Source: Pseudomonadota bacterium (GTDB taxonomy: Bacteria; Desulfobacterota; Desulfobulbia; Desulfobulbales; SURF-16). Taken from it: DNA of 64,000 nucleotides. Within the stretch, counting starts at the first letter, position 1; the number at the start of each line of letters is the position of its first letter. Shown in pieces: positions 58,153 through 59,581 of this stretch. The notes under the pieces are model-generated. The model saw nothing but the letters and a program-made list of their open reading frames with translations, had not been told where the DNA came from and ran no database searches. The position numbers and the translations under genes were made by a program. Location: positions 12,570-76,569 of the forward strand of contig JAHJKA010000051.1 in the NCBI GenBank assembly GCA_018822545.1. The letters are read 5' to 3'.

Positions 58153-58425
58153 CTAACAGCAATCACCCTCGCGCCCTAAAAGCTCATTGATGATGGCCCG
58201 GACGCAACCTTCACCGGCCGCGACCTCCAAGGCACCAACCGGGCAGTTACGGGCACAGGCGCTGCACTCCATACACCTGTCACGGGCGACAAGCACGGCC
58301 TTTCCCCCTGTCACCGTCAAGACACCATGGGGACAGACCAGTTCACAGATGCCACAGCCAATACAGATCTCCGGATTGAGCTTTAGGCTCACCACATTAT
58401 CGATATACTGAAAATAATCAGCCAT
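58153..58425 (-). CDS. hgcB: HgcB, 2x[4Fe-4S] ferredoxin of the mercury methylation pair
   Basis: CIGCGICELVCP and CMECSACARNCP clusters, an additional internal Cys (GEGCVRA) and the C-terminal CC tail (...GREGDCC). 7 nt downstream of hgcA. Confidence 0.88.
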   Translation of the reverse strand: MADYFQYIDNVVSLKLNPEICIGCGICELVCPHGVLTVTGGKAVLVARDRCMECSACARNCPVGALEVAAGEGCVRAIINELLGREGDCC

Positions 58426-58432
58426 TTTCCCC

Positions 58433-59581
58433 TCACGAAATCCAGAAGCGGGCAGCCAGCCAGCAGCAAAAACCTGTCACCCCAGCCGCTACTTGGATAG
58501 GAATGGCCCGCAGCATCTCATGCCGTACTCCTGAGCGTGAGGTATAGGTGGAGGCGCCGGTAAAATTCATCCCCAACCAGGAGGAGATTGCCGTTACCAT
58601 GAGCAGCCAGGCCACTATTTCCACACGGCCCATGCCCCTGTCCGGCCACACAAAGAGGTAGATGGCCACCACCACCAGATAGGATAAAAGCCCGGCCCAC
58701 ATCCCTTTGACACTGAACGCCCGACCAGAGAGCCAGGGCAGCAAGACCGGCACCAGGACCGTGCCGCCTATGAGAGCGGCAAGCAGGGCCAGCACAGCAA
58801 AAAAGCCCATCTCCAGAGCAGCAGCCCAAAAAATGTTCTTCCCGCCCAAGCCTGACAGAAGAAGAAAGAAAAGAATGAGAAGAAAGATTTTGCCACTGGC
58901 CTGAACAAATTCCACCGGGGCCAGTGCCAGCCGCTCTGCCAAGGGGAAACTCTTGCGGCGCATGGCCGCATCCGCCACCATGCCGTTATCCAGAAAGGCG
59001 GGAAGATCAGCGGCCAGCACCGGTCCCCAGACCACCTGAAAGCCCGTATATTTCTTTATATCAAGACCGTTGACGCCAGGGGCACCGAGCTGGGGGATTA
59101 TGATCTTCCGGTGGGTGACCACTTCAGCCAGACGGCTTTCGACAACCCTATCGTAGAGCTCCACTGTCCCAAAAGTTCCCTTACCTGCCGCGCACCAAAC
59201 ATTAATGCCCTTGGTATCCAGAACTAAAATCCAGCAATCACGTCCGGCCAGAGCAGCACGCAACTGATCGAAACTCATCTTGTAATTGGCGGTGACAACA
59301 ACAACACTGCTCGAATCTGGTGCGCCCAGGGCGTAGAGACCTGGATCAACGATAAAAGACATCCTGCCAATATTCCAGCGGGCCAGATAGCTGCCCCTTT
59401 TATCCTGGGCAGTGAGAGACGACCTTGCTGTAGGCACCAAGCCCGCAGCAGAAACTGTCTGGCCAACGACAAAGCACTGCTCGCTGGACGGCGGTTTACA
59501 AATACCGTCGAGCTTTGCCTCGGCCATGACCACAGCCAGCGGCACCAGCTCTTTTTTTACTCTTGGCGGTGGGATTTTCAT
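58433..59581 (-). CDS. hgcA: HgcA, corrinoid protein of the mercury methylation pair
   Basis: Diagnostic cap-helix motif GINVWCAAGKGTFGT, preceded by VTANYKMSFDQLR and followed by IIPQLGAPGV. C-terminal multi-TM domain. Confidence 0.92.
   Translation of the reverse strand: MKIPPPRVKKELVPLAVVMAEAKLDGICKPPSSEQCFVVGQTVSAAGLVPTARSSLTAQDKRGSYLARWNIGRMSFIVDPGLYALGAPDSSSVVVVTANYKMSFDQLRAALAGRDCWILVLDTKGINVWCAAGKGTFGTVELYDRVVESRLAEVVTHRKIIIPQLGAPGVNGLDIKKYTGFQVVWGPVLAADLPAFLDNGMVADAAMRRKSFPLAERLALAPVEFVQASGKIFLLILFFLLLSGLGGKNIFWAAALEMGFFAVLALLAALIGGTVLVPVLLPWLSGRAFSVKGMWAGLLSYLVVVAIYLFVWPDRGMGRVEIVAWLLMVTAISSWLGMNFTGASTYTSRSGVRHEMLRAIPIQVAAGVTGFCCWLAARFWIS

Follow-up and report, generated by a model that had tools for sequence, protein, structure and literature searches.

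The 64,000-nt stretch of contig JAHJKA010000051.1 analyzed here (the window; all coordinates refer to it) contains two adjacent minus-strand open reading frames (ORFs) between positions 58153 and 59581 that resemble hgcA and hgcB. This locus raises the question of whether the ORFs represent a genuine hgcAB pair, whether the uncultured Desulfobulbaceae-like bacterium that carries them should be regarded as a mercury methylator, and how the genes might be expressed. On the basis of sequence comparisons, we conclude with a probability of roughly 0.92 that these ORFs constitute a genuine hgcA-hgcB pair, whose products form a membrane-associated, cobalamin-dependent mercury methyltransferase complex. 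With these two genes, anaerobic bacteria convert inorganic mercury to methylmercury, which is toxic. Because hgcAB is the accepted genetic marker of microbial methylmercury production, the bacterium is flagged as a probable methylator. The pair is one more routine instance of a system already well known and introduces no novel biology. It adds one further lineage-level data point that is useful to environmental inventories, and it leaves understanding of the system unchanged.

Identity of the HgcA and HgcB reading frames

The upstream gene, hgcA (58433..59581, minus strand), was recognized from the ORF listing and by profile match. It starts with ATG and encodes a 382-amino-acid (aa) corrinoid protein, in which a variable N-terminal region (residues 1-48) is followed by a corrinoid-binding domain and by a C-terminal domain with five hydrophobic helices (approximately residues 225-377). 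An earlier note on this DNA had described a 382-aa ORF with an NVWCAAGKG cap helix and a multi-transmembrane C-terminus, and its coordinates are exact. The cap helix NVWCAAGK occupies residues 127-134 and places the cysteine at position 130. Kyte-Doolittle analysis with a 19-residue window locates the five hydrophobic stretches at approximately 225-243, 263-281, 293-311, 320-338 and 359-377. The same note had suggested examination with an hgcA profile. The NCBIfam equivalog profile NF040863 (HgcA_corrinoid) matches the protein with 423.9 bits (E 4e-127), compared with a curated cutoff of 275, and the alignment spans profile positions 1-324 of 325. Only the nonconserved N-terminal region of about 48 residues precedes the start of this match.

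To assess conservation residue by residue, we aligned 12 HgcA sequences from six phylum-level labels. The window protein retains every one of the 70 invariant columns, including N127-V-W-C-A-A-G-K-G-T136, as well as conserved columns of the membrane domain (for example, M338, T341-G342, Y346-T347-S348 and G351-V352). The NVWCAAGK motif, invariant throughout this alignment, is one of six high-stringency Hg-MATE motifs and is part of the high-stringency criterion for true hgcA (PMC10087281). The reading frames of both genes are intact, with neither frameshifts nor internal stops. An alternative call would shorten HgcA to 364 aa. Because the ATG at 59581 is conserved as a start in seven of seven related loci, and because the frames are continuous in all loci, 59581 is supported as the true start.

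The second gene, hgcB (58153..58425, minus strand), was detected in the same two ways. It starts with ATG and encodes a 90-aa ferredoxin of the 2x[4Fe-4S] type. Its ATG lies 7 nt beyond the hgcA stop codon (TTTCCCC on the plus strand) and is preceded by GAGGGG, a Shine-Dalgarno-like ribosome-binding site. Two CX2CX2CX3CP motifs are present, CIGCGICELVCP (residues 21-32) and CMECSACARNCP (residues 51-62). An extra cysteine, Cys74, resides within GEGCVRAI, and the protein ends in GDCC, so that Cys89-Cys90 are its final two residues. These features agree with the earlier description of a ferredoxin located 7 nt downstream with an extra cysteine and a C-terminal cysteine pair. When the protein was aligned with eight other HgcB sequences, the eight cluster cysteines and Cys74 were found to be invariant in all nine, and therefore all are kept in the window. 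Loss of the cap-helix cysteine or of other essential residues, which had been named as grounds for abandoning the assignment, is thus not seen in either alignment. Counterparts of Cys73, Cys94 and Cys95 of HgcB from Pseudodesulfovibrio mercurii ND132, whose roles have been described (PMC7305189, PMC11588087), are all present. The NCBIfam equivalog profile NF040864 (HgcB_ferredoxin) matches with 102.1 bits (E 1.1e-29; cutoff 99), compared with 51.9 bits for the runner-up family, and Pfam Fer4 families match as well.

Could the larger protein instead be a nonmethylating paralogue that resembles HgcA, either a corrinoid protein of the Wood-Ljungdahl pathway, such as a corrinoid iron-sulfur protein (CFeSP/CdhE type), or kin of the fused HgcAB-like proteins that are reported not to methylate in culture (PMC10087281)? 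Some annotation points in this direction. Pfam recognizes only the generic corrinoid domain PF03599 (CdhD family; residues 77-188), close relatives carry the name "acetyl-CoA synthase subunit gamma" at both NCBI and the Joint Genome Institute (JGI), and the matches in the PDB are CFeSP. We attribute the misnaming of the relatives to the fact that Pfam sees only this generic domain. The profile for the CFeSP large (gamma) subunit, AcsC/CdhE, scores 65.3 bits against a cutoff of 306, and only its positions 323-445 of 450 match, that is, the corrinoid domain of about 120 residues. The fused HgcAB-like profile NF043039 scores 197.3 bits with HgcA and 51.9 bits with HgcB against a cutoff of 285, whereas the HgcA equivalog is far above its own cutoff. 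The hgcA gene ends in a stop codon, and 7 nt later hgcB starts from a separate ATG served by a ribosome-binding site of its own; the two genes are therefore unfused. Moreover, the cap-helix cysteine ligand is absent from CFeSP (PMC7305189) and present in the window protein, and a five-helix membrane domain stands where CFeSP has its Fe-S and TIM-barrel parts. Identity as either the CFeSP large subunit or a fused HgcAB-like protein was accordingly rejected, and a nonmethylating paralogue of any such kind seems to us extremely improbable.

Predicted mercury methylation and probable loss of the pair in a relative

Because hgcA and hgcB are complete and unfused and lack none of the residues with a known essential role, we predict that the organism methylates mercury. 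Cys93 of HgcA and Cys73 of HgcB are both essential in ND132, the HgcA transmembrane domain is likewise essential, and at least one C-terminal HgcB cysteine is required (PMC7305189). The consensus protocol paper states that every tested isolate that has the canonical HgcA cap-helix motif methylates mercury (PMC10087281), and the Desulfobulbaceae are an established methylator lineage (see also PMC7862947). The prediction of a methylmercury producer, made in the earlier note, is therefore supported by the available sequence tests, through established knowledge of the system.

By analogy with the ND132 enzyme, the [4Fe-4S] clusters of HgcB would reduce the corrinoid carried by HgcA to Co(I). This cofactor would then be methylated, with S-adenosylmethionine (SAM) as the donor according to a 2024 biochemical study, to give methylcob(III)alamin ligated by Cys130. 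The methyl group would be transferred to Hg(II) presented by thiols, probably including the Cys89/Cys90 pair and Cys74 of HgcB, while the complex would be anchored by the five-helix membrane domain of HgcA. Work with the purified ND132 complex established SAM as the methyl donor, showed that Cys-ligated methylcobalamin methylates mercury, and demonstrated Co-thiolate ligation. Cobalamin binding with this ligation and Hg(II) methylation have been shown for the ND132 enzyme only (PMC11588087).

Several points weigh against this interpretation. HgcB clears the NF040864 cutoff by only 3 bits. Its residues 51-56 read CMECSA and fail the high-stringency Hg-MATE motif C(M/I)ECGA, as serine replaces glycine. 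A PDB search with HgcA returned no HgcA structure, only CFeSP corrinoid domains (E ~4e-7). The host's predicted methylmercury production is read only from gene content, and the dedicated hgcA promoter proposed below, which would give a leaderless or near-leaderless mRNA, only from conservation. Finally, published work in the field treats what HgcAB natively does as an open question (10.1101/2022.10.17.512643; PMC10083202).

The deviation in HgcB appears to be a property of the clade. CMECSA is common to the window and related loci L001 and L003, and more distant HgcB proteins have CMECGA. The serine position is not a cluster ligand, and all ligand cysteines are kept. The other half of the Hg-MATE criterion for hgcB, the presence of hgcA on the same contig, is satisfied. 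Because CMECSA departs from the CMECGA of the high-stringency filter, motif-based pipelines could under-call hgcB in this clade.

Searches with HgcA yielded 7989 homologues at E <= 1e-10. The closest full-length relatives come from JGI metagenome contig L016 and Logan contig L017, each with 87% identity, and identity rises to 91% with one incomplete JGI protein. For proteins from metagenome-assembled genomes (MAGs) labeled Desulfobulbaceae or Thermodesulfobacteriota, identities span 65-74%. Proteins from two MAGs, one labeled Thermodesulfobacteriota and the other "Pseudomonadota", show 71-73% identity, that from a Desulfobulbaceae MAG 65%, and those from other phyla approximately 46-53%.

Comparison of the related loci revealed a conserved gene order: fumarase/enolase, a divergent flavin oxidoreductase gene of the old yellow enzyme (OYE) family, a 60-aa ORF, hgcA, hgcB, a terminator, and two genes convergent on hgcB. 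The latter encode predicted membrane proteins of 103 aa (57767-58078, plus strand) and 70 aa (57495-57707, plus strand), and both are conserved in L001, L003, L016 and L017. Pfam and NCBIfam assign no significant family to the 60-, 70- or 103-aa proteins. As a side observation, the 103-aa protein has sub-threshold similarity to HmcD (19 bits, cutoff 34). The downstream flank varies among relatives. For example, about 4.5 kb of additional DNA separates hgcB from the 103-aa gene in L003, and the latter gene was not found in the fetched L002 locus.

Two loci have this backbone without hgcAB. L018 (positions 1773-2199) and L019 (843-1269) are Logan contigs from SRR12684493 and SRR12682491, respectively. 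They were independently assembled from different runs and are 100% identical over 1269 nt, across the junction. In each, the OYE gene and the small ORF are followed by approximately 110 nt of unrelated sequence and then by the same terminator and by the 103-aa gene, within which both contigs end. The OYE proteins of L018/L019 are 87% identical to that of the window, as are those of the hgcAB-positive loci L016 and L017, and those of hgcAB-positive L001-L003 are 79-82% identical. Because the L018/L019 OYE is as close to the window as that of L016/L017, and closer than those of L001-L003, loss of the cassette in the L018/L019 lineage is the parsimonious reading. The hgcAB pair is a two-gene cassette within a conserved backbone, and at least one close relative appears to have lost it. 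One reading of L018 resembles the GDCC end of hgcB, and neither global nor local alignments between the small-ORF stop and the terminator gave a significant match to an hgcB remnant. Widespread loss of hgc has been inferred phylogenetically (PMC10083202), and the L018/L019 case is in line with it. Clean presence and absence of the two genes at the same locus provides a natural example of such loss.

This loss bears on a second explanation, in which the genes are genuine hgcAB and mercury methylation is incidental. The selected function would be another corrinoid- and SAM-dependent methyl transfer or a metal(loid)-related role, and output in situ might be negligible owing to low or conditional expression. 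That the native function is an open question, as noted, favors this view, and native expression in ND132 is extremely low (PMC11588087). The pair also appears dispensable, because a relative nested in the same clade lost it cleanly, and the conserved neighbors, a small four-cysteine (Cys4) protein and the OYE flavin reductase, include no mercury-specific gene. Set against these points are the uniform methylation by tested isolates with a canonical cap helix (PMC10087281) and the lack of any departure from functional HgcAB in the window sequences. We consider this explanation unlikely, while giving it appreciable weight. Its subject is what the pair means physiologically, and it leaves the biochemical assignment as a mercury methyltransferase complex uncontested.

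Expression of hgcAB and the upstream small reading frame

The hgcA and hgcB genes are translationally close, given the 7-nt gap and hgcB's own ribosome-binding site, and a strong terminator follows them. This bidirectional intrinsic terminator (58093..58144), located between hgcB and the convergent 103-aa gene, consists of a G+C-rich hairpin with an A-run on one side and a T-run on the other. Its minus-strand RNA is predicted to fold with -37.8 kcal/mol (z = -6.75), and none of 200 shuffled sequences was as stable. The hairpin is homologous in L017 and in L018, which lacks hgcAB.

Upstream of hgcA, a conserved 48-nt spacer (59582..59629, minus strand) separates the gene from the small ORF. It contains a conserved CTGGGCG at about -36 from the hgcA ATG and an element of the form TGnTAnnnT, resembling an extended -10 promoter, which in the window reads TGCTATATT and lies at -15. 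The element occurs at -15 or -14 in seven of seven loci (the window, L001, L002, L003, L016, L020 and L022, the last with TGGTATAAT) and is absent from L018. The spacer is conserved although the HgcA proteins of these relatives are only 65-87% identical. It has no Shine-Dalgarno sequence before hgcA, and neither a hairpin nor a stable structure was detected within it (RNA fold z = +1.28). Because the -10 hexamer ends 5-6 nt before the ATG, a leaderless hgcA mRNA initiated from an extended -10 promoter is the simplest reading. In this proposal, transcription would begin at the conserved element that abuts the hgcA ATG, and read-through from the upstream small ORF would possibly provide a second route.

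Other forms of control were also considered. The earlier note had placed hgcAB next to a sigma-54-controlled locus, and this proximity was not borne out. The sigma-54 activator genes (25237-26583 and 35918-38068) are 20-33 kb away, and hgcA is not preceded by a -24/-12 element. A sigma-54 promoter was rejected on inspection, as the conserved TGGGCGGCTGCA has GG and GC only about 7 nt apart, which is not the -24/-12 geometry. A scan with Rfam gathering thresholds gave 0 hits in the whole window, and thus no riboswitch (B12 or other) or other known RNA near hgcAB. An ArsR-type regulator (arsR2/hgcR) upstream of hgcA is known only in hgc-positive Desulfovibrionaceae (10.1101/2022.10.17.512643). 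No ArsR-family helix-turn-helix gene was found directly upstream of hgcA in the window; the small ORF and the divergent OYE gene are there instead.

The small ORF (59630..59812, minus strand), unannotated and directly upstream of hgcA on the same strand, encodes a 60-aa protein from an ATG that follows an AGGAGG ribosome-binding site by 7 nt. The peptide is rich in lysine and glutamate and has the invariant core C-V-C-x-x-E-W...D-C-x-C. In the clade, this core reads TCVCNMEWRGTHxxEWGDCVC, and the proteins are 49-60 aa long. The ORF precedes hgcA in the window and at L001 (2634-2789), L002 (2992-3147), L003 (5701-5850), L016 (7594-7776)/L017, L020 (4001-4150) and L022 (1870-2019). The family is rare: searches of 5.8 billion and 1.84 billion proteins yielded only 27 homologues and 25 representatives, respectively, and nearly all of them are 43-94 aa long. 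A distant subgroup is located elsewhere without hgcA, twice directly after dsrC and also beside a methyltransferase gene. In two distant members, the motif is embedded between DnaJ-like CxxCxG pairs, which hints that the core may be a Cys4 metal-binding hairpin. AlphaFold2 modeling with the 27-sequence alignment gave a poor model (predicted local distance difference test, pLDDT, 56; predicted template modeling score, pTM, 0.28). No account of a small Cys-rich gene upstream of hgcA turned up in a literature search.

A promoter scan identified a sigma-70-type promoter for the small ORF (59867..59898, minus strand) consisting of TTGCAA, a 16-nt spacer and TATCAT, whose -35/-10 geometry is conserved in L001, L002, L003, L016 and L018. 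Its spacer and -10 region contain a Fur-box-like palindrome (AATAATGCTTATCATTATC on the minus strand), given as GATAATGATAAGCATTATT at 59867-59885 within the intergenic stretch between the small ORF and the divergent OYE gene. The palindrome agrees at 17 of 19 positions with the classical Fur consensus, and it is the sole such site in 64 kb, with 0.02 expected. L016, L001 and L002 do not preserve its right half-site, which makes Fur regulation no more than a weak lead.

These observations suggest a third possibility, that the Cys4 protein, hgcA and hgcB form a three-gene operon under metal (Fur-family) control in which the mini-protein would be a dedicated thiol partner that either donates Hg(II) or accepts CH3Hg+. 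In its favor, the small ORF carries a strong ribosome-binding site and lies 48 nt upstream with no intervening terminator, it precedes hgcA in eight independent loci of the clade, and its four invariant cysteines form a CxC...CxC pattern. A published model for HgcAB requires an exogenous protein thiol to release CH3Hg+ from Cys73 of HgcB (PMC7305189), and the Fur-like site overlaps the small-ORF promoter. However, L018 and L019 retain the small ORF and its promoter without hgcAB, and distant family members reside beside dsrC or a methyltransferase gene without hgcA. In addition, hgcA has its own conserved promoter-like element, hgcAB loci of other lineages (L004-L010) lack the small ORF, the Fur-like half-site is not conserved in the closest relatives, and the structure prediction is uninformative. 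We therefore judge the operon improbable, and a dedicated accessory role in HgcAB function for the Cys4 protein is similarly doubtful. Equally speculative is the broader idea that hgcAB of this clade resides in an undescribed module that combines a co-transcribed Cys4 mini-protein (TCVCNMEWRG...DCxC) acting as a thiol partner with leaderless hgcA expression from the extended -10. Were it true, the module would provide, for the first time beyond the ArsR system of Desulfovibrionaceae, a concrete cis-regulatory handle on how hgcAB is expressed. The conserved promoter-like element and the Cys4 mini-ORF suggest hypotheses that can be tested about hgcAB expression, which is poorly understood.

Wider context and known systems

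The remainder of the window includes a region from 31 to 57 kb that encodes PAS/GAF histidine kinases, two GGDEF proteins, two HD-GYP response regulators and one HDOD protein. Its densest part (43527-57107) contains a 1316-aa PAS/GAF hybrid kinase, a Tll0287-like PAS kinase, both HD-GYP response regulators and the HDOD protein. One HD-GYP regulator (54742-56070) matches the profile of a NosR-family, nitric oxide-responsive phosphodiesterase of cyclic di-GMP (c-di-GMP) with 468.8 bits (cutoff 400), and the block is possibly a circuit from nitric oxide or redox signals to c-di-GMP. The earlier note had regarded the proximity of such a redox-sensing and c-di-GMP island as notable. Signaling genes flank hgcAB only in the closest relatives (L016, L017 and, in part, L001) and not in L002 or L003, and the analysis provides no evidence for a functional link.

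A large cluster of multiheme c-type cytochrome genes (5479-24631, minus strand, and 28408-29586, plus strand) encodes proteins with up to 10 paired CXXCH repeats and MtrC/MtrF-like domains, together with beta-propeller proteins, and is probably an extracellular electron-transfer locus. It adjoins the sigma-54-dependent response regulator gene at 25237-26583 and is probably the sigma-54-controlled locus to which the earlier note referred. Separately, a full-length GGGtGRT-family protein (PF14057, 639 bits), whose function is unknown, is encoded at 2451-3446 on the minus strand.

Among known systems, the CFeSP large subunit (AcsC/CdhE, PF03599) shares with HgcA a homologous Rossmann-like corrinoid-binding domain with a cap helix, and in the PDB alignments approximately residues 318-439 of CFeSP chains pair with HgcA residues 76-197 (E ~4e-7). 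CFeSP differs in lacking the cap-helix cysteine ligand and the membrane domain and in having an N-terminal [4Fe-4S] domain and a TIM barrel. The fused HgcAB-like proteins (NF043039) give partial profile matches to both window ORFs, whereas the window has two genes, each with its own start codon and ribosome-binding site.

The closest counterparts are hgcAB loci of uncultured Desulfobulbaceae/Thermodesulfobacteriota, such as PKTX01000006 (Desulfobulbaceae BM506), JBDLIE010000062, JAUVQZ010000095 and JGI Ga0395806_0000351. They share HgcA proteins of 380-383 aa with 65-87% identity, the CMECSA variant of HgcB, the backbone, and the promoter-like element before the hgcA ATG. They differ in the downstream flank, and the window HgcA is a distinct sequence among them, with no full-length relative closer than 87%.

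The genetically and biochemically characterized reference system is HgcA/HgcB of P. mercurii (Desulfovibrio desulfuricans) ND132. In comparison with it, the window HgcA has the nonconserved N-terminal region of about 48 residues, and the window HgcB has CMECSA instead of CMECGA. A Desulfovibrionaceae HgcA (L008) is approximately 49% identical to the window protein. With ND132, the window pair shares the order of hgcA followed by hgcB, a cap helix of the form N(V/I)WCA(A/G)GK with its cysteine ligand, the five-helix membrane domain, and an HgcB with two CX2CX2CX3CP motifs, the equivalent of Cys73 (Cys74 in the window) and a C-terminal cysteine pair.

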